IMG/VR virus record: IMGVR_UViG_3300028586_000799 | Span: 1 to 52,934 of that record | Length of the DNA stretch: 52,934 nucleotides | Direction: 5' to 3' (one strand) | Origin: a virus | Lineage: Duplodnaviria > Caudoviricetes | Shown: positions 21,576-52,934 of the stretch, one piece after another | Layout of the letters: the number at the start of each line of letters is the position of its first letter | Numbering within the stretch: position 1 is the first letter of the stretch | Notes under the pieces: model-generated | Told to the model about the DNA's origin: nothing | What the model saw: only the letters and a program-made list of their open reading frames with translations | Database searches by the model: none | Made by a program: the position numbers and the translations under genes

Positions 21576-22115
21576 ATGAAATCCGCTGCACTACTTAAAG
21601 CTGTTTACAAAGATTGCCTGGAACGCGGCTATGTTGCCGATGGAGATGATCTTTACCCTCCCAGTAATCCAAAGGCAATCGCTATAATGGAAGCCAGGTC
21701 CAAACGCAAACCGCGAACTAACCACATTAAGACCGGCTGGATTGACGATACTCGCAACATCAAGAATAAAGAGCAACGCGACATGTTTGTCATGCTGATT
21801 GAAAAGGAGTTAGGAGTGGAGGTGTGGCCAGAGTTCTACTTCAGCACTGAAAGACTGTACAGGTTCGATTATGCCATCCCATTAAAACCCCGGAATTCCG
21901 GGGAATTAAAGATCGCCATCGAACAGGAAGGCGGCATATGGGCCAAAGGCAACAGCGGCCATTCATCAGGCACCGGTATCCAGCGTGACATGGACAAGAA
22001 TAATCTAGCCATTGCCCAAGGCTGGGTGATCATCCGGAGAACGCCTGATCAGATGATGACGAGTGAGACAATTGAGCTGATAAAAGTTTTAATGAAACAA
22101 AGGATCGAACTTTAA
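21576..22115 (+). CDS. PD-(D/E)XK endonuclease (Vsr/DUF559-like)
   Basis: EFYF..ERLYRFDYA...IAIEQEGGIW..GH...DMDKNNLAIAQGWVIIR. Confidence 0.75.
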   Translation: MKSAALLKAVYKDCLERGYVADGDDLYPPSNPKAIAIMEARSKRKPRTNHIKTGWIDDTRNIKNKEQRDMFVMLIEKELGVEVWPEFYFSTERLYRFDYAIPLKPRNSGELKIAIEQEGGIWAKGNSGHSSGTGIQRDMDKNNLAIAQGWVIIRRTPDQMMTSETIELIKVLMKQRIEL

Positions 22116-22486
22116 TTTAGCCGGTAAATATAGGCATCGTCTATCAGGACACCATTTATGGTGTTTTTGGTAAATCTAATATCACATAGGTTGTAACCGG
22201 TCCTCGTAAAGGAAGTCAACAACTTATTGATGCTGTCATTTGGGCTGATAACCGAAATGGAATCAAAGGGTAAGTTCCGATCTTGTAATATCCTTAAAAT
22301 TCGTGTGTAAACTTTTATAGGACCTTCAGTGTCAGCCAATATTGTTGCAAGCATCAATCTCCAATCATCCATATCCTGTAAATAGAGCCAAAAAGCACTC
22401 GTAATTTCTAGGCCATTTTTGTCTAAAGTTCGTACTAGCTCTTTCCCCATTTCAATATCCTCTTTTACCAATGTTTCTTTACCCAT
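22112..22486 (-). CDS. HEPN-partner protein (putative antitoxin)
   Basis: Overlaps the HEPN gene; AFWLY..D..DWRLMLA motif; no canonical GS..DxD. Confidence 0.6.
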   Translation of the reverse strand: MGKETLVKEDIEMGKELVRTLDKNGLEITSAFWLYLQDMDDWRLMLATILADTEGPIKVYTRILRILQDRNLPFDSISVISPNDSINKLLTSFTRTGYNLCDIRFTKNTINGVLIDDAYIYRLN

Positions 22487-22878
22487 GACATTATTCCGTT
22501 ACGTCTATGATCTACTGCTGTATACAAATCTGAAGCTTTTACTCTTGAACTCCTTTGATATCTACTGGTTTCATTCCAGTCTTTAACTACACTCCAGTTA
22601 ACTTTGAAGTTTGAATTTAACCCGGATATTCTCAGTAAATCAGGTTCCAGCCCAGCTAACTTTACCAATTTGGAAACATCATGTGTAAAGCTTTCAGAAG
22701 CTAACCTTTTGTCTGGAAATTCATAGCGTTTGATGTGCTTAGCAATACACGCCTTTAGGGCACACTCGACGCTGTAACCACACAAGTAGTACGCTCCATC
22801 ATAGAACCCACCATCAAGTAAATGCTTAGCCTCAATTAATCTCAGCTTAGAAAGTTCCTTCAGTTCATTTCGAGTCAT
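22465..22878 (-). CDS. HEPN-domain protein
   Basis: RLIEAKHLL...YDGAYYLCGYSVECALKACI...THDVSKL...WNETSRY. Confidence 0.8.
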   Translation of the reverse strand: MTRNELKELSKLRLIEAKHLLDGGFYDGAYYLCGYSVECALKACIAKHIKRYEFPDKRLASESFTHDVSKLVKLAGLEPDLLRISGLNSNFKVNWSVVKDWNETSRYQRSSRVKASDLYTAVDHRRNGIMSWVKKHW

Positions 22879-22979: not shown

Positions 22980-23446
22980 TGCTAATGAATGATCAACACG
23001 CTTCATTAATGATCACCGTTTTGCGTAAAGACTATCCTGAAATTGCCACATTAATCACGGCTAAGATCAGCAAGAGCCTGCCGGAACGCTCGCTTTACGA
23101 CCTGCAGCATATAGATCAGATCGTTGCCAGCTTCAAATTAGCTAAAGGCATTACAGAGCAAAACTGGACTGAAGGGAAGAGCGAGATCAAGATCGTGGAA
23201 AGCAGGGATCTGCTGCTGGGTGTGATTCTGATGTTTTACCATCCGGAGAAGCTGATGGACCTGACGAGTTTAAGAACGAAATCAGGCGTGCTAAAGAATT
23301 TAGCATTAGCATTAGGAACCAAGCAGCCTGTTTTAAGTCTACGTGTAGCGATCGTGATTGTAGCGTTCAGGGCTTATGAGGAATTCAGACTTGAAGTGTA
23401 CCGGCTCTACGAGCTGATTAGAATTGAAAACAAATTTTTTGAATAA
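22979..23446 (+). CDS. Hypothetical protein (possible late regulator by position)
   Basis: 155 aa ORF directly after the operator-like motif. Confidence 0.55.
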   Translation: MLMNDQHASLMITVLRKDYPEIATLITAKISKSLPERSLYDLQHIDQIVASFKLAKGITEQNWTEGKSEIKIVESRDLLLGVILMFYHPEKLMDLTSLRTKSGVLKNLALALGTKQPVLSLRVAIVIVAFRAYEEFRLEVYRLYELIRIENKFFE

Positions 23447-23573
23447 TGTCAAAGCAAAATATCGAGATCAAACCGGCATGCAATATCAAAGACAATGAGA
23501 TAATAGTATTGCTCCCTTTAAGCCTCCACATTAAAGAATACCTACTCAGACCGTCAACTCTAAATTAACTATA

Positions 23574-23771
23574 ATGGCAAAGCAAATCAAACCTAAGTAC
23601 CCGATGGACCGGGAAAAACAAAGCCTGGCATTCCAAGAATCGCAGGTGACAACATCGCAGTACACCTCTGATCCAAGCATCACCATCCGCATTAAAGGCG
23701 AGTATTCAGATTCAGTACTGAACGACCTGCAGAATGCAGTGGATGATATTCTGAAGCATCACGACAAGTAA
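23574..23771 (+). CDS. Hypothetical protein
   Basis: 65 aa ORF. Confidence 0.5.
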   Translation: MAKQIKPKYPMDREKQSLAFQESQVTTSQYTSDPSITIRIKGEYSDSVLNDLQNAVDDILKHHDK

Positions 23772-23776
23772 CCATA

Positions 23777-23909
23777 TCAGAGTTAGCTCATGGCAGAGCG
23801 GCTCGGTGACCCCGGGCGACACACGGCACCAGCGTTGAAACCTGGTTGTAAAATGTGTAATCTGTAATCAAATGCAGATGGACTTAGGTTCGAATCCTTT
23901 GACTTTGAC
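23777..23909 (+). ncRNA. tRNA-like RNA (Val-GAC-like) with oversized variable arm
   Basis: Acceptor TCAGAGT/ACTTTGA, D arm GCTC-ATGGCA-GAGC, anticodon arm GCTCG-GTGACCC-CGGGC, T loop GGTTCGAATCC; ~65-nt insert; no encoded CCA. Confidence 0.65.
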
Positions 23910-24063
23910 AAAACAAACAGAGAGCGCGCAACTGAAAGAACTTTGGCTGTAGAAGTACAATACAACGATTGTTTTGCCCGGATAGCTAACGGGATAGGTT
24001 GGGCCAGAGATTCAAGTCCTGTAACGCACGGGTAATTTCCAACAGTTCAGGCATAGCAATACA

Positions 24064-24429
24064 ATGGTTAAATTAAGAACAGCTTTAATGTTGATTGGCC
24101 TAGTGGTCATGTCAGCACTTTACCCGGTCCAGGTGAAGGCTCAGGAACAAACGGATAACACGGAGTTAGTCTCTACGCAGGTATTCTCTGGTGAAGAGAA
24201 GAATCTTACAGACAGCTTGCTTTCAGTTGGAAAGGCTTTGACTGATCCAACGTTAAAGGCTACGGTAGTCGATGCAGTGAATGTGATCAAAGCGACGCCA
24301 CAGTCCGGCGGCATTGATGCATGGTACGCCTGGTTGATTGCAGCACTCGGTGCAGTCTTTGGAGTTTACCAGTACGTCAAACGGTCGCTCGCAAAGCCTA
24401 AGGTCACGAGCGCAAGCCGAACATACTAA
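24064..24429 (+). CDS. Exported protein with signal peptide and C-terminal TM anchor
   Basis: N-terminal h-region ending VKA-QE; C-terminal AWLIAALGAVFGVY plus basic tail. Confidence 0.65.
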   Translation: MVKLRTALMLIGLVVMSALYPVQVKAQEQTDNTELVSTQVFSGEEKNLTDSLLSVGKALTDPTLKATVVDAVNVIKATPQSGGIDAWYAWLIAALGAVFGVYQYVKRSLAKPKVTSASRTY

Positions 24430-24448
24430 AACCTAACAGAAAGATTTT

Positions 24449-24476
24449 AAAAAGCCCCACTGATCCGGGGCTTTTT
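24449..24476 (+). terminator. Intrinsic terminator
   Basis: AAAAAGCCCC-ACTGATCC-GGGGCTTTTT. Confidence 0.75.
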
Positions 24477-24758
24477 AATTTGATAACCAGCTATCCTAAA
24501 TATTTTAGTGATATCTCGCCATGTAAGGAGTTGCTACGCTAGTGGATCTATTAAAAAGAAGTTGGAGGTACGACATCAAGACCAGGTTGATGTGGACGGT
24601 ATGGCAGAAAACGTGCTAACAGCTTTTAAAGTCCATCTTAAAGAATTGAAAGATAATTAGAGCTACAAAGAAGTCTGCCTTGTGAAAAATATTTTTCAAA
24701 CCTTTGGGAAATAGGCGATTAAACATTAAATTCATTCACAATCAACTTGATAGCATTT

Positions 24759-26008: not shown

Positions 26009-26485
26009 ATGGCAGGGGAAACCGAGAAAGCAAGGCTCAAGCGAATTGAGAAGTCTGCGACCGACAAACGAAAGAGATTTATTAAAGACTGCAACGCTGA
26101 TCCGGACCTAAAGCCATTCGACGCTAAGAAGCGCTATGCGCTGCACGCATTGAAGCTATGCCGGGGCAATATTTCCAATGCCAGCAAAATGATCAATCTT
26201 AGCCGAAGGATGATCCACAACTATATGGTTGATGATCCTGACTTTGATGAGATGGTTAAGCTGATAAAACTAGAGGTTTTGGATCATGTAGAAGATAAGT
26301 TGCTGCAAAACTGTGATGCCGGAAAAGAAACGTCCATCATATACTATTTGAACTGCCAGGGTAAAGAACGCGGCTACGGCAATGCGCTTAAAGTAGATGG
26401 CAAGATCAATAATATCAACTATAATGTGCCTGTTACCCCTGATGAGGTGAAAGATATTGCCAAAGCTTTAGAAGACGAGTTTTAA
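26009..26485 (+). CDS. terS: Terminase small subunit
   Basis: HTH (GNISNASKMINLSRRMIHNY), SIIYYLNCQGKERGY; directly before TerL. Confidence 0.75.
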   Translation: MAGETEKARLKRIEKSATDKRKRFIKDCNADPDLKPFDAKKRYALHALKLCRGNISNASKMINLSRRMIHNYMVDDPDFDEMVKLIKLEVLDHVEDKLLQNCDAGKETSIIYYLNCQGKERGYGNALKVDGKINNINYNVPVTPDEVKDIAKALEDEF

Positions 26486-26488
26486 GGA

Positions 26489-28048
26489 ATGCTGACCAAA
26501 GATGAAATAAAGAAGATCAAGGTGGCTACAGTCAAATGTAAGTCCGACCTTTTATTTCAGACCAGGTACCTGTTTAAAAAGAATACGAACAAGAAGTTTA
26601 TCATCGGTGAACATCATCAACAGATTGCGGATGTCCTAGAGCTGGTCCTCAAGGGTGAGCTTATCAAAGTGATGATCAACATTGCGCCCAGGTATGGTAA
26701 AACTGAGCTTGCTGTAAAGAACTTTGTTGCCCACGCATTGGCCTTGAATGCTTCAGCAAACTTCATTCACCTTTCTTACTCAGACGATTTGGCGCTGGAT
26801 AACTCCGAAGCTATTCGCGACATGGTTGAGACTGAAGCCTACCAGCAGATGTTTCCTCATGTACAGATCAAGCAGGACTCCGATGCTAAGAAGAAATGGT
26901 ACACTACTGAAGGTGGCGGCGTGTATGCCCGTGCTGCCGGTGGTCAGGTAACGGGATTCGGTGCCGGTAAGGTGGATGAGGAGAAAACACCGGAAGAACT
27001 GGAGGAAGAAGCCGAGTTCATGACTGAGCTGGACGGCATGCTTTCTGATCTAAATATCAAATCCGGATTTAATGGCGCCCTGATCATAGATGACCCGATT
27101 AAGCCTGATGATGCTGATTCCGATACGATCCGCGAACGGATTAACAACCGATTCAACTCGACAATCAGGAACAGGGTAAATAGCAGGAATACACCGATCA
27201 TCATTATCATGCAGCGTTTGCACGAGAATGATCTTTGCGGCTACCTGATGAGCCAGGAGGCTTACACTTACGATCTGGAAGAAGCGCTTGCTGACAGGAC
27301 CAAATGGTATGTGCTAAGTATCCCAGTGATTAAGAACTACGGAGAGGAAGGCAAGGAGGAAGCTCTTTGGCCATTCAAGCACACGCTTGATGAGCTGAAG
27401 GAAATGGAAGAGAAATTCCCGATCGTCTTCGGACGGCAGTACATGATGAATCCCCAGCCAAAAGAAGGATTCTTGTATGGTCCGTTTAAAACTTACCGTC
27501 GTGGTTTCCTTCCGTTCTCAACCACACCGAAGATCCGGAAAGCCTACATTGATACGGCCGACACTGGTACCGATTACCTGTGCTCCATTGTTTATGATGA
27601 GCTTGATATCGGAAACTTCGTGACAGATGTGATCTACACACAGGCAAGCATGGAGACTACCGAAGTTGAAGTCGCTAAGCAGCTTGCCCGGGAAGAAGTA
27701 GATCGTGCGCTATTCGAAAGTAACAACGGTGGGCGTGGATTTGCACGAAATGTCGAGAAAGGATTAAGGCTTATCGGCAATAAAAAGACTAAAGTCGAGT
27801 GGTTCCATCAAAGCGAGAATAAAGACGTGCGGATTTTCACTAAATCCGCTGATGTGATGAACCTAACTTACTTTCCAGAAGGGTGGGAGAAGCTTTGGCC
27901 AGTATTCTACAAGTCTCTAAAGACATACAAGGCTGCTGGAAAGAATAAGCATGACGATGCTGAAGATGCGCTCACCGGTACGACTGAAGACTTTGGTAAA
28001 AAGGTGATTGTGACCGCTCAAAGCAAACAAAAATTAGGATTCTATTAA
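26489..28048 (+). CDS. terL: Terminase large subunit
   Basis: INIAPRYGKT, LIIDDPIK, IIMQRLHEND, IDTADTGTD, HDDAEDAL. Confidence 0.95.
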   Translation: MLTKDEIKKIKVATVKCKSDLLFQTRYLFKKNTNKKFIIGEHHQQIADVLELVLKGELIKVMINIAPRYGKTELAVKNFVAHALALNASANFIHLSYSDDLALDNSEAIRDMVETEAYQQMFPHVQIKQDSDAKKKWYTTEGGGVYARAAGGQVTGFGAGKVDEEKTPEELEEEAEFMTELDGMLSDLNIKSGFNGALIIDDPIKPDDADSDTIRERINNRFNSTIRNRVNSRNTPIIIIMQRLHENDLCGYLMSQEAYTYDLEEALADRTKWYVLSIPVIKNYGEEGKEEALWPFKHTLDELKEMEEKFPIVFGRQYMMNPQPKEGFLYGPFKTYRRGFLPFSTTPKIRKAYIDTADTGTDYLCSIVYDELDIGNFVTDVIYTQASMETTEVEVAKQLAREEVDRALFESNNGGRGFARNVEKGLRLIGNKKTKVEWFHQSENKDVRIFTKSADVMNLTYFPEGWEKLWPVFYKSLKTYKAAGKNKHDDAEDALTGTTEDFGKKVIVTAQSKQKLGFY

Positions 28049-51731: not shown

Positions 51732-52934
51732 TTACCATCCTATAGTTTTCCCCCTCAATCGTGTATCCATGTGGTTCACAAGATCACGTTTATACTTGTC
51801 ATAGCTTGCCGTATCCCGGTGGCCGGTAAGGTTCATGATTTCAGCATCTGAATACCCAGCATTGAGCAGATGGGCAACTCGCGTATGTTTTAGCCCGTAG
51901 AGCGTAAAGTCATCAGACAAACCTAGTGGAGTCCTAATATCTTCTCTAAATACCCTAGTGAAGTAATTTTCACTGTGCATTTTTGAACTTACATCACCCT
52001 GGTACCCGATCACGTAGTAATTTGATGGATACTTATCAAGCTGCAGCCCTGCAAGCATTTCTGCAAGCTCATCACATATAGGTACGGTTCTGCTTTTTGT
52101 CTTCCCTACAATCTTTATGTACCGGCCAGTAATATCGACGTTCTCGATCTTCAAATGTCGGATCTCATCAGGTCGCATGCAACTGAAGTAAATAAACTTA
52201 GAGAAGAAAAGCAGCTTAGGATATTTCTCCATCTTCTGCTTTACTTTTTCAGCAACCGTGTCGCCAAAGTACTGATTCTTCATAGGCTTGGTCACCTTCT
52301 GCTCCAGCTGCTCATCATTGCCGATATAGAAGCTATCACGCGTCACCCATTTGCGCGGGTTCTTAGCAAACCAGTTCAGAAGCGTTACCCAGAAGTTGAG
52401 GTGATTGTTGTAGGTGGTGCCGTTCCACTTGTGGAGCTCCTGCAACCAGGTAAGCATGTCCTTGATAAACTTCGTATCCAGGTTATCCAGCCTGATGTCT
52501 GCAAGCTTGCATTCAAACAGGTAGTTCTCAAACTTTCCGATGTATGATCGGTAAGCATTCATCGTATCACCTGCAAGGTTCTTCTCAGCCTTGTTCGCAA
52601 GAAACTCTTTGAAAGCATTCAGCAGGGTAGGAGATTTCGGGTTCTCTTCAAGCTGTATTTGCGCTTTCACTTCATGGATCTTCTTTTCCGTGACCACATG
52701 GGCTTCAAAGGGATTGTAACCTGCTTTGAGGGATTTATTAATCTCATCTATCAACTCGTTCAGATAAGCTTCTTTCTCCTTTAAGGTATGAATGTAGTTT
52801 ACACCCTCTTTGACCTTGATGAATTTAAACTTACCAGTACCGGGATTCATGAACGAATAATAAGCATACCATTCTTCGTTCGGATCTCCGGTTTTACCTC
52901 GATATCCTTTAGCCCATTTGTACTTTTTAAGCAT
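51732..52934 (-). CDS. int: Tyrosine recombinase / phage integrase
   Basis: MRPDEI (R), GK (K), LKHTR (HxxR), TGHRD (H), YDKY (Y); N-terminal arm-like and SAM-like regions. Confidence 0.95.
   Translation of the reverse strand: MLKKYKWAKGYRGKTGDPNEEWYAYYSFMNPGTGKFKFIKVKEGVNYIHTLKEKEAYLNELIDEINKSLKAGYNPFEAHVVTEKKIHEVKAQIQLEENPKSPTLLNAFKEFLANKAEKNLAGDTMNAYRSYIGKFENYLFECKLADIRLDNLDTKFIKDMLTWLQELHKWNGTTYNNHLNFWVTLLNWFAKNPRKWVTRDSFYIGNDEQLEQKVTKPMKNQYFGDTVAEKVKQKMEKYPKLLFFSKFIYFSCMRPDEIRHLKIENVDITGRYIKIVGKTKSRTVPICDELAEMLAGLQLDKYPSNYYVIGYQGDVSSKMHSENYFTRVFREDIRTPLGLSDDFTLYGLKHTRVAHLLNAGYSDAEIMNLTGHRDTASYDKYKRDLVNHMDTRLRGKTIGW

Follow-up and report, generated by a model that had tools for sequence, protein, structure and literature searches.

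A tRNA-derived, non-decoding element with a two-hairpin insert at the early-late junction of a provirus

Introduction

What does a provirus carry in a sequence that can be drawn as a tRNA with two additional hairpins in its variable loop: a tRNA, a mimic of one, or the remains of one? The question is raised by a non-coding slot of 292 nt where the early and late regions of a temperate phage meet, a provirus probably of Bacteroidota type, within a stretch of 52,934 nucleotides (positions 1-52,934 of IMG/VR record IMGVR_UViG_3300028586_000799, hereafter the window). Phage tRNAs are now regarded as weapons against tRNA-cutting host nucleases, and a phage RNA that displayed every tRNA-processing and tRNA-binding surface but took no part in decoding would, if true, be a different tool, a decoy or a processing signal, and one that standard annotation would overlook. 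The original prediction, made from the letters of the window, labelled the element as tRNA-Val(GAC)-like and left a tRNA mimic and a decayed tRNA as alternatives. Here we describe its anatomy, its relatives at the same slot and the readings that they allow.

Results

Anatomy of the element

The features that had been predicted are all present when the sequence is read directly from 23777 to 23908 on the + strand (Table 1). The shell is made up of a 7-bp acceptor stem, with six Watson-Crick pairs and G23780.T23905, followed by U8-A9, a perfect D arm, G23800 at the position of G26, a GAC hairpin at the anticodon position and a consensus T loop. The nucleotides expected to form tertiary interactions, U8, A14, G18, G19, A21, G53, T54, T55, C56, G57, A58 and C61, are intact throughout. 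The insert of 65-66 nt, folded into two hairpins, lies exactly in the variable loop, between G44-A45 and GGAC (46-48), and the exact GGTTCGAATCC of the T arm occurs once in the window. No CCA is encoded, positions 23909-12 reading CAAA.

Table 1. Coordinates of the element, its parts and its neighbours in the window.
Feature	Position	Strand	Remarks
65-aa gene, left of the slot	23574..23771	+	conserved; relatives with 54-86% identity in 5/6 related records
Acceptor stem, 5' strand, TCAGAGT	23777..23783	+	pairs 7/7 with 23902-08
U8 + A9 linker, T23784 and A23785	23784..23785	+	direct reading
D arm, GCTC-ATGGCA-GAGC	23786..23799	+	A14, G18, G19, A21; reading and fold
Anticodon-type hairpin, GCTCG-GTGACCC-CGGGC	23801..23817	+	U33 present; G32, C37, C38 atypical
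Insert hairpin 1, ACACA..GCACCAG..CUGGUUG..UGUGU	23819..23858	+	minimum-energy fold
Insert hairpin 2, ATCTGTA-ATCAAA-TGCAGAT	23860..23879	+	7 bp; minimum-energy fold
T arm	23883..23901	+	loop TTCGAAT at 23889-95 between GG and CC; direct reading
Acceptor stem, 3' strand, ACTTTGA, and discriminator C	23902..23909	+	reading and fold
Candidate second, more degenerate tRNA remnant	23975..24034	+	direct reading; weak
Conserved 3' module, ATTCAAGTCCTG-N26-CAGGCATAGCA	24010..24058	+	just before start codon 24064
121-aa gene, right of the slot	24064..24429	+	N-terminal hydrophobic stretch; relatives in L002, L003, L004

Three points were not part of the original prediction, namely the pairing of G32 with C38, the identity of nucleotide 37 and a surplus nucleotide next to the T stem. 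G23806 (position 32) can pair with C23812 (position 38), and the minimum-energy fold draws the anticodon-type hairpin as a 6-bp stem with a 5-nt loop. Position 37, where a purine is usual in tRNAs, is occupied by C. The T stem, TTAGG/CCTTT, consists of three pairs (G-C, G-C and A-U, with G53-C61 present) and two U.U oppositions, and the surplus nucleotide, G23901, is either unpaired between the T stem and the acceptor or paired with C23883, which would result in a T stem of six layers (a 7/6 branch of 13 layers). The register of the acceptor branch can be drawn in several ways. In the minimum-energy fold T23784 and A23785 pair with G23901 and T23900, giving a 9-bp acceptor and at most three T-stem pairs but leaving one U unpaired and the D stem without a preceding linker, with 7/5+1 or 7/6 branches equally possible, and in the register of ARAGORN the acceptor is shifted by one and a single linker nucleotide precedes the D stem.

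Measured against a canonical tRNA, the element has the 7-bp acceptor, U8, the 4-bp D stem and the D loop with A14, G18, G19 and A21. It departs from it in the anticodon loop, where an open loop of 7 nt with Y32, U33 and R37 is expected and only U33 fits, and in the variable region, which spans 65-66 nt as against 4-5 nt in class I tRNAs or an arm of about 10-24 nt in class II tRNAs. A loop that G32 and C38 can close, C at position 37, a T stem with few pairs and one nucleotide too many lead us to regard the element as non-decoding. The tRNA-Val(GAC) label does not denote a decoder: the element is real, tRNA-derived and non-decoding, and it is no working tRNA-Val.

A tRNA-like structure beyond chance

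In order to compare the element with random sequence, we used a rule-based scan for the shell, in which an acceptor pairing 7/7 must be combined with U8, with a D stem of 4 bp accompanied by A14 and GG, and with a correctly placed GTTCRANNC. The element was the single site in the window, and one of 300 dinucleotide shuffles gave a site. Likewise, when ARAGORN was allowed to skip up to 100 nt, the element was its sole call in the window and 20 shuffles yielded none. The folding energy of the whole element had a z-score of −2.70 (2 of 200 shuffles folded as well) and that of the insert alone −2.49, better than 197 of 200 shuffles. A tRNA-like structure is present in the sequence beyond what chance would produce.

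Standard tools did not report it. ARAGORN with default settings called no tRNA and no tmRNA gene, and Rfam gave no match at the gathering score. With the Rfam tRNA model a stretch of 551 nt and the 53-nt 5' half were both without a match at E≤10, as was the whole window at E≤1, and the sole tmRNA match scored 3.1 bits. Together with the anatomy, these results bear out the expectation that the element is neither a class II tRNA nor a tmRNA.

The surroundings of the element

Downstream in the same slot, the candidate second remnant shows a 6-bp terminal helix, a D-arm-like GATAGCTAACGGGATAGG and a T-loop-like GATTCAAGTCC and has no anticodon arm; it folds no better than its shuffles (z = 0.09). 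The 3' module that overlaps it is common to the window and two related records, L002 and L008, which were also the only viral contigs returned when its pattern was scanned for, genome contigs returning none. A short direct repeat, CAATACAA(C/T)G, occurs at 23958 and 24057. A mobile repeat of the MITE or REP kind was considered for the insert and rejected, the window holding neither a second copy of insert hairpin 1 nor flanking repeats. The search for promoters and terminators returned two weak sigma-70-like matches, both downstream of the element, and no + strand terminator; TAnnTTTG, the Bacteroidota promoter consensus, is absent from the + strand between 22800 and 24800. Contigs from the RNA library of run X3 cover 24133-24418 only, within the 121-aa gene, a gap over the element that does not count against its transcription; X4 covers only 24235-24495. 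A HEPN-domain gene (22465-22878) lies about 900 nt upstream of the element; neither it nor a 124-aa partner turned up in the collected loci of the relatives, and NCBIfam had no match for them.

Relatives at the same slot

Scans of viral, metagenome and genome contig collections yielded six related viral records. The slot is without any such element in four of them (L003, L004, L010 and L011), and in L002 only vestiges are left, the 5' half being missing while the T-loop and acceptor 3' remains can still be aligned. This absence in four of six relatives and the loss of the 5' half in L002 indicate that the element is dispensable. The remaining record, L008, is a close relative (92% identity in TerL and 86% in the 65-aa protein) and holds a different tRNA-like element in the same slot (L008:1706-1851), in which the 7-bp acceptor is perfect, the D arm is of class II type, the T stem has 5 bp and the centre, of 86 nt, folds no better than shuffles (z = −0.32). 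It scores 28.1 bits on the Rfam tRNA model, whose cut-off is 29, and no tRNA above that cut-off was found in five whole related records. Homologs that are ordinary tRNAs, with this copy alone disrupted, would have counted against the original prediction; the relatives at this slot are not ordinary tRNAs.

The element itself is retained in one further contig (X5), which is 92% identical over 23571-24481. Three of its 133 positions are changed there: G23780 to A, which turns the G.U pair of the acceptor into A-U, A23850G in the internal loop of insert hairpin 1, and C23869G in the loop of insert hairpin 2. None of the three breaks a pair, an outcome with a chance of about 0.15 by a rough estimate. 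In the flanking genes, 29 of 198 positions are changed on one side and 34 of 418 on the other (Fisher p = 1e-4 and 0.016, respectively, against the element). The block of low divergence, with 11 differences in 23769-24168, reaches about 100 nt into the downstream ORF, so that the conservation could be due to recent recombination just as well as to selection. In another contig (X6), 212 other letters stand in place of 23624-24043.

Beyond these records, neither the viral nor the metagenome collections contained a copy of the stretch from the D arm to the anticodon hairpin, of the D and T arms at the expanded spacing or of the 22-mer hairpin; the insert itself was searched for within the window. 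GenBank phages showed no similarity to the 1-kb region or its 292-nt spacer, nor to the element of L008 or the two elements of provirus G006 described below. The sole match of one metagenome scan (L007) was discarded as a chance match inside a high-GC coding region. Three of the four matches of one viral scan (L020, L022 and L023) lack tRNA-like features, with nothing reported by ARAGORN or the Rfam tRNA model, and look like chance, probably in coding sequence.

Discussion

A functional mimic or a decaying relic

The two alternatives that were offered at the outset, a mimic or a decayed tRNA, both survive the analysis, the former helped by relatives that are not ordinary tRNAs and hurt by the dispensability that absence in four of six of them implies. 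We slightly favour, with a probability of roughly 0.45, a functional tRNA mimic, that is, a tRNA-derived, non-decoding RNA cassette at 23777-23908. Such a cassette would have kept the shell of a tRNA, from the acceptor/T minihelix and D arm to those nucleotides that form the elbow between D loop and T loop, and its two extra hairpins would grow from the variable loop, which is also the site of the extra arm in class II tRNAs. Since it has no promoter motif of its own, it would share the transcript of the rightward early operon. The shell may then be recognised by RNase P and by the enzymes that form tRNA 3' ends, and their cuts in the polycistronic RNA, between the 65-aa and 121-aa genes, would release a stable RNA of about 132 nt that shows the surfaces of a tRNA and takes no part in decoding. 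Its role could be either that of a punctuation mark for processing or stabilising the transcript or that of bait for tRNA-binding proteins, for example tRNA-directed nucleases.

In favour of a mimic stand a shell and a folded insert beyond chance, the intact tertiary nucleotides, changes in X5 that spare every pair, the L008 element and the lack of tRNAs above the Rfam cut-off in the related records, and the recurrence in other proviruses of RNAs with a shell and an enlarged centre, described below. Several observations count against a mimic: the two U.U oppositions, the surplus nucleotide and the lack of CCA; the replacement in X6; centres that cannot be aligned between the window, L008 and G006 elements, and an L008 centre that folds no better than shuffles; and the missing match to the Rfam tRNA model. 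The degenerate second remnant next to the element suggests a graveyard of tRNAs. The main rival is a relic, in which a phage tRNA gene of the Val-GAC type would have been inactivated by a 65-nt insertion into its variable loop and be decaying while relatives delete the slot, a reading that is itself quite plausible and falls just short of the mimic. G32-C38, C37, the U.U oppositions and the surplus nucleotide would kill decoding and weaken the T arm. The element is missing from four of six relatives and vestigial in L002, has neither CCA nor a promoter motif of its own, adjoins a remnant without an anticodon arm and is called neither by Rfam nor by ARAGORN at its defaults; about two broken pairs among some 38 are consistent with recent inactivation, and the conserved block in X5 may be a block of recombination. 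However, decay is expected to give scattered mismatches and not a tidy two-hairpin insert, better folded than nearly all of its shuffles, at a site that tolerates an arm. The acceptor, the D stem, the anticodon-type stem and the elbow nucleotides are all intact, and the only stem change in X5 preserves its pair. The presumed intact ancestor is present in no relative, L008 having instead another expanded tRNA-like element with an intact shell, and phage genomes seldom keep 292 nt of useless DNA. If the element is a relic all the same, it offers a snapshot of phage tRNA cassettes that take up insertions and then erode.

Other readings of the locus

A third reading places the function mainly at the level of DNA: the slot would link the early to the late module as a mosaic joint or a site of recombination, with the tRNA-like sequence as a passenger acquired from another source. 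The window, L002 and L008 do hold differing cassettes within shared, conserved flanks, of which the right one, ATTCAAGTCCTG...CAGGCATAGCA, is near-identical in all three while the neighbouring proteins differ by 14-35%, and the CAATACAA(C/T)G repeat lies at 23958 and 24057. This reading leaves the intact shell and the structured insert unexplained, no other copy of any part was found in the window, and the three stretches searched for in the viral and metagenome collections had no copy there; we consider it highly improbable.

It is scarcely credible that the element decodes, as a tRNA-Val(GAC) that receives an amino acid and serves on the ribosome in spite of its giant variable region. Canonical spacing does allow a cloverleaf with U33 and the anticodon GAC, class II tRNAs demonstrate that an arm at the variable position is compatible with translation, and irregular tRNAs from soil metagenomes can be active, as stated in the available text of PMC5389517. 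Against this, the minimum-energy fold closes the loop to 5 nt through G32-C38, C stands at position 37, the T stem is weak, one nucleotide is in surplus, and the tRNA finders (ARAGORN at default settings and Rfam) reject it. A two-hairpin region of 65 nt also far exceeds the variable arms described in the portions of PMC5389517 and PMC7609411 available to us.

An interrupted tRNA gene, whose middle part would be removed from the RNA, is suggested by the intron mode of ARAGORN, which reads 23778-23909 as tRNA-Leu(taa) interrupted by an intron of 41 nt and L008:1706-1852 as tRNA-Thr(agt) interrupted by one of 62 nt, but it is very unlikely, because the anticodon stems are poor (two G.U and one mismatch in the five pairs of the window's), the perfect hairpin at the canonical anticodon position is disregarded, and no Rfam intron or ribozyme family matches. 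Bacterial tRNA introns are known as group I introns of 200 nt or more, and we know of no bacterial splicing mechanism for inserts of 41-66 nt. The intron readings appear forced, the lowered thresholds yielding 11 calls, judged spurious, in the 6.3 kb of L002. A group I intron was rejected on the same Rfam result and on the insert, which has 65-66 nt and lies in the variable and not in the anticodon loop.

Comparison with known RNAs

With class II tRNAs (Leu, Ser, Tyr and Sec) the element shares a canonical acceptor, D arm, T loop and elbow nucleotides and an extra arm between the anticodon stem and the T stem. Class II tRNAs carry one arm, whereas here there are two separate hairpins over 65-66 nt, a D arm of class I type, a defective anticodon loop and T stem, and rejection by the finders. 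The class II arm has an upper size of about 24 nt. The accessible part of PMC7609411 gives it only as 'greater than 10' nt.

tmRNA, too, combines a tRNA-like acceptor/T domain with a large insertion, which replaces the anticodon region or adjoins it. The element differs from it in lacking G3.U70, its wobble being at 4.69 and replaced by A-U in X5, and in having no pseudoknots, no tag frame and a length of 132 nt, whereas tmRNAs exceed 230 nt; the ARAGORN tmRNA search was negative and the best Rfam tmRNA score was the 3.1 bits given above.

Irregular tRNAs offer another comparison. Mukai et al. (2017, PMC5389517) report, in the text available, allo-tRNAs as well as polycistrons of tRNAs that are irregular, with noncanonical cloverleaves from soil bacteria and from soil and litter metagenomes, some with possible five-stem junctions or an extra loop and some inactive in translation. 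What defines allo-tRNAs there is an acceptor branch of 8/4 or 9/3, a D stem that is long and ends in a tetraloop, and a single long V arm. The D stem of the element measures 4 bp and its loop 6 nt, its branch can be drawn as 7/5(+1) or 7/6 as well as with the 9-bp acceptor of the minimum-energy fold, and it carries two hairpins; the Sec-like D arm and single long V arm are absent from it. The same excerpt suggests a link between irregular tRNAs and toxin-antitoxin genes; in the window, the HEPN-domain gene lies upstream of the element.

The closest match for how the element may work is, by analogy, with tRNA-like processing signals. The t-elements of plant mitochondria and the phage RNAs cut by RNase P (P4 CI RNA, P1/P7 C4 RNA and phi80 M3 RNA) are, in the sections of PMC5499578 at hand, non-decoding structures within longer transcripts that are recognised by the machinery of tRNA processing and define RNA ends. 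The P4, P1/P7 and phi80 RNAs are described in those sections as hairpin-like and without an equivalent of the T loop, whereas in the element the shell is complete, T loop and D arm included.

YrlA (Chen et al. 2014, PMC4201824) is a non-coding RNA of about 100-150 nt that, as far as the consulted portion of the paper states, mimics D and T arms with conserved tertiary nucleotides, also occurs in phages, is cut by RNase P and undergoes CCA addition. In the same portion, its acceptor-like stem is a closed stem-loop, its ends lie at the anticodon side, and it is joined to a Ro60-binding helix with GNCGAAN0-1G; the element ends in its acceptor stem and has no Rfam match. No Ro60-type (TROVE) family was present among 37 window ORFs scanned with Pfam, a set without the late-region ORFs, and the features that mark a YrlA-type RNA are lacking.

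The idea of a decoy or of escape has its basis in phage tRNAs with altered anticodon loops, which escape tRNA-directed defence nucleases (van den Berg 2023, PMC10264068; Azam 2024, PMC11555353, both from partial text). The element resembles them as a phage-borne, tRNA-type molecule with an unusual anticodon loop; those tRNAs, as the partial text has it, work and restore translation, whereas the element is unlikely to decode. A narrow literature search returned no account of any tRNA whose variable region forms two hairpins over about 65 nt.

A possible wider class

The shell scan was also applied to the collected loci together with the window (184,251 bases, both strands), and it returned only four expanded elements and one ordinary tRNA-Asn of 71 nt. 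The expanded elements are those of the window (132 nt) and L008 (145 nt) and two paralogous RNAs, A (132 nt) and B (118 nt), in an unrelated provirus, G006. RNAs A and B both have a perfect shell, an encoded CCA and a conserved centre in the form of a three-way junction, and five shell pairs differ between them on both sides and are still paired, as read from their alignment. The pair shows that RNAs made of a shell and a centre are maintained somewhere. The window element likewise has an intact acceptor/D/T shell and an enlarged centre within the span of 118-145 nt.

We tentatively raise the possibility, which we think doubtful at present, that some phage RNAs, about 120-145 nt in length, form a class not yet described in which the tRNA shell is kept and the anticodon/variable region is replaced or enlarged by hairpins, so that they are tRNA mimics. 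Such a class would be found at the early-late junction of temperate phages, would be overlooked by tRNA finders and would, for example, lure tRNA-directed defence nucleases or punctuate phage transcripts in an RNase P-dependent manner, and the window element, the L008 element and the two CCA-bearing paralogues would be independent examples of it. Their centres cannot be aligned, A and B alone sharing one, and a common family of the window, L008 and G006 elements is thus without support. Nevertheless, a single scan gave four shell-plus-centre elements in three proviruses, which suggests that the finders may systematically miss a category of phage RNA. The 17-mer D-arm string of the window element recurs in RNA B.

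Genomic setting

The window (52,934 bp) spans an entire IMG/VR provirus record, whose completeness is estimated at 93% and which has a tyrosine integrase gene at its right end. Its early region holds RecT, SNF2 helicase and PcfK/PcfJ-like genes and two DnaA-C HTH genes, and beyond the terminase genes there are more long rightward ORFs, one of them of 1308 aa. The large terminase is nearest to those of uncultured gut phages (54%) and Bacteroides phages (46%), which suggests that the host is probably a member of the Bacteroidota; public runs holding DNA of the window carry the label leaf-litter metagenome. The slot of 292 nt that harbours the element is non-coding. A conserved gene for a 65-aa protein borders it on the left, and the gene on its right encodes 121 aa, with a hydrophobic stretch at the N terminus. 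The slot marks the junction of the early and late modules, with the small terminase gene ∼2.2 kb further downstream. Since a sequence search around the slot found neither a promoter nor a terminator belonging to the element, it would, if transcribed, probably be transcribed within the rightward operon.

Coordinates of the element and of associated features (window positions unless a locus is named; X5 is a public sequencing run, L002, L008 and L013 belong to related viral records, and L021 and L025 are loci of the unrelated provirus G006)
Feature	Coordinates	Strand	Remarks
Acceptor stem	23777-83/23902-08	+	7 pairs, one G.U
U8-A9	directly 3' of acceptor 5' strand	+	
D arm	23786-99	+	
Anticodon-type hairpin	23801-17	+	loop GUGACCC
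Two extra hairpins	23819-58 and 23860-79	+	
T loop TTCGAAT	23889-95	+	T stem with two U.U
X5 change G23780A	23780		acceptor, G.U to A-U
X5 change A23850G	23850		internal loop
X5 change C23869G	23869		loop of hairpin 2
Slot	23772-24063		non-coding
Possible second, truncated tRNA remnant	23975-24034		behind the element
Conserved module ATTCAAGTCCTG-N22-26-CAGGCATAGCA	24010-24058 (N26); L002:2935-2993; L008:1903-1947 (approximate)		
Direct repeat CAATACAA(C/T)G(A/G)TT	23958-23970 and 24057-24069		
L002 tandem duplication TCGGCTCCACAAAA x2	L002:2915-2942 (approximate)		within the vestigial spacer
L008 element	L008:1706-1851 (= L013:3008-3152)		IMGVR_UViG_3300031132_000048
G006 RNA A	L025:1192-1327		
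G006 RNA B	L025:1531-1652		
G006 RNAs, coordinates also given	L021:810-931		
HEPN-domain gene and small partner	22112-22878	-	
Small and large terminase genes	26009-28048		
Tyrosine integrase	51732-52934	-	right end of the window

Anatomy and tRNA origin of the element

The tRNA-Val(GAC)-like RNA with a two-hairpin variable region is a real feature and was rightly described in the original prediction, each part of which was found in place by direct reading. No CCA is encoded at its 3' end. The minimum-energy fold of 23772-23915 recovers the acceptor, the D arm, the anticodon-type hairpin and both extra hairpins (−46.6 kcal/mol, z = −2.70, 2/200 shuffles equally stable), and the insert folded alone gave z = −2.49, with 3/200 shuffles equally stable. 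The insert occupies precisely the position of the variable loop (G-A, insert, G-G-A-C, T stem), the same place at which class II tRNAs carry their arm. Because G32 and C38 can pair, the minimum-energy fold prefers a 6-bp anticodon-type stem with a 5-nt loop; position 37 is C. A surplus nucleotide can be placed in two ways, either as G23901 between the T stem and the acceptor or in a G23901-C23883 pair that gives a six-layer T stem and a 13-layer branch, and in the ARAGORN register a single linker nucleotide precedes the D stem.

The ARAGORN and Rfam searches proposed with the original prediction made no call at the element by default ARAGORN or by Rfam: default ARAGORN reported 0 tRNA and 0 tmRNA genes in the window, and Rfam gave no match at the gathering score, nothing tRNA-like at E<=10 in the 551 nt around the element or in its isolated 5' half, and no match at E<=1 in the whole window. 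We also scanned for a tRNA shell, for which the criteria were 7/7 acceptor pairs, a U at position 8, a D stem of 4 bp together with A14 and GG, and a correctly placed GTTCRANNC. In the window only the element satisfied these rules, as did a sequence in 1/300 dinucleotide shuffles; when the D-arm rule was dropped 163/300 shuffles had a match, and therefore the specificity rests on the D arm. The hairpin with U33 at the canonical position is additional to the features demanded by the scan. With a skip of up to 100 nt allowed, ARAGORN called the element as its only hit in the window and made no call in 20 shuffles. Thus the likeness to tRNA is not due to chance and the element is tRNA-derived.

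Related and parallel RNAs

Both flanking genes and a 155-aa gene further left served as protein queries in the search for relatives, which returned only six among viral records and none among genome and metagenome contigs. In four of the six the slot is empty of the element: the spacer is 0-3 nt in L003 and L011, 3 nt behind a different upstream gene in L004, and ∼40 nt followed by a different gene in L010. The 137-nt spacer of L002 holds the conserved 3' module without the 5' half of the element, and its vestige aligns to the T loop and the acceptor 3' strand. In the closest relative, L008 (65-aa protein 86%, TerS 95% and TerL 92% identical), the same slot is filled by a different element. 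Its acceptor is perfect over 7 bp, its D arm is of the tRNA-Leu type and its T stem has 5 bp; a hairpin occupies the class II variable-arm position, and an 86-nt centre stands where an anticodon arm would be expected. The Rfam tRNA model gave this element 28.1 bits, below the cut-off of 29 (model positions 1-71, 86 nt inserted), and default ARAGORN made no call on it. Ordinary tRNAs beside a single broken copy, the alternative raised with the original prediction, were not what the examined relatives held, and no tRNA above the Rfam cut-off was found in the five whole related records searched. Downstream of the L008 element are the conserved module and a hairpin resembling an intrinsic terminator; an ORF on the reverse strand and an SRAP-family gene come next.

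The 17-base string of the D arm, used as a query, matched an unrelated, higher-GC provirus, G006 (IMGVR_UViG_3300001682_000194), in which we found two paralogous RNAs, A and B. The shell scan (positions 1-72) gives them lengths of 132 nt and 118 nt. In each of them the acceptor stem, D arm and T arm are perfect and an ACCA end is encoded, and they share a centre of ∼70-85 nt that takes the place of an anticodon arm and forms a GGCGG/CCGCC stem around two hairpins (three-way junction). On direct reading of the alignment, five shell pairs are changed on both sides and still paired (acceptor 2 and 7, the third D-stem pair, T-stem 50-64 and 51-63), with one broken pair, 49-65 in B. Neither ARAGORN nor Rfam made a call on A or B. 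Across all retrieved loci and the window (184,251 bases, both strands), the shell scan found five sites, namely the window element, the L008 element, A, B and one ordinary tRNA-Asn. Together with the A and B shells, this indicates from sequence comparison that RNAs with a tRNA shell and an expanded centre exist and are maintained in at least one provirus. The G006 centres could not be aligned to their counterparts in the window and L008, and the comparison thus gives no support for a common family. A DUF1064 gene lies on one side of the pair and, at a greater distance, a DUF3102 gene on the other, at what is probably an early-late junction, and a hairpin, CCCGGAAAGACGGGC, is repeated around A and B.

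A near-identical copy was found in an X5 contig, which spans 23571-24481 at ∼92% identity (72 differences, 3 gaps) and differs from the element at just three positions (3/133). Divergence is higher in the upstream gene (29/198) and the downstream gene (34/418), with Fisher p = 1e-4 and 0.016 against the element. The low divergence is compatible with purifying selection, but two points temper this reading: we estimate the chance of three harmless changes out of three at roughly 0.15, and a recent recombination block would account for the low divergence equally well, because the low-divergence block (11 differences in 23769-24168) reaches at least ∼100 nt into the downstream ORF. X6, a second public run whose contig has 212 other letters in place of 23624-24043, is a further lineage without the element.

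Mimic or relic

The element is tRNA-derived yet no working decoder, a phage-borne irregular or pseudo tRNA, and its architecture is unusual and recurring, with a patchy distribution. We slightly favour a non-decoding tRNA mimic or processing module, with a probability of about 0.45, because the shell and the elbow nucleotides are intact, the structured insert occupies the only position that tolerates one, the X5 acceptor change preserves its pair, and the architecture recurs in L008 and G006. The element may quite possibly be instead the relic of a tRNA cassette that was struck by an insertion and is now eroding, to which the patchiness, the remains seen in L002, the weakness of the T stem, the missing CCA and promoter, and the apparent second remnant adjoining the element all point. 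The two readings stay close to each other. As a mimic or processing module, and by analogy with known tRNA-like substrates, the element would be co-transcribed with its neighbours and recognised by RNase P and 3'-end enzymes, and the stable RNA of ∼132 nt thus released could work as punctuation or bait. Such substrates are described for the t-elements of plant mitochondria and for the P4 CI, P1/P7 C4 and phi80 M3 RNAs of phages (PMC5499578), and for YrlA (PMC4201824).

Among the published RNAs compared, the nearest are the allo-tRNAs and irregular tRNA polycistrons of soil metagenomes, which in some cases may form five-stem junctions or have an additional loop and in some cases are translation-inactive (PMC5389517; PMC7609411). 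The element departs from the allo-tRNA hallmarks described there (8/4 or 9/3 branch, Sec-like D arm, single V arm; PMC5389517), and the published five-stem forms, compared by description only, might be closer. Phage tRNAs evading anticodon nucleases frame the decoy idea, yet they are described as working tRNAs (PMC10264068, PMC11555353). Membership of the element in an as yet undescribed class of phage RNAs with an expanded tRNA-like form is conceivable, although we consider it less likely than not.

Neighbouring features

A 137-aa HEPN-domain gene (Pfam E = 4e-7) overlaps a 124-aa partner of unassigned family (PHROGs 5737 and 5760) ∼900 nt upstream of the element on the opposite strand, and the two may form a prophage-borne toxin-antitoxin or defence pair. 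Some HEPN RNases cut tRNAs. The pair was not found in the examined loci of the relatives, and therefore no link between it and the element can be claimed.

In the possible second remnant, a terminal helix of 6 bp, a stretch resembling a D arm and a T-loop-like GATTCAAGTCC can be discerned; an anticodon arm is missing, and the fold of the remnant is no better than those of shuffles. Next comes the conserved module. It is near-identical in three phages despite differences of 14-35% between their neighbouring proteins, and it could serve as a leader for the gene downstream, fold as a hairpin (CCUG/CAGG) or mark a joint at which modules recombine. The second copy of the direct repeat includes the start codon of the 121-aa gene, which suggests that the start region of this gene may have been duplicated upon insertion of the second remnant.

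The type-P5 twister ribozyme gives a match below threshold (22.5 bits; the cut-off is 37.6) at L023:9348-9429 (-), on an unrelated viral contig. The 155-aa and 65-aa genes abut in the relatives' loci L012 and L013, unlike in the window, where ∼125 extra bases (23447-23573) lie between them, including a 40-aa ORF (23446-23568).
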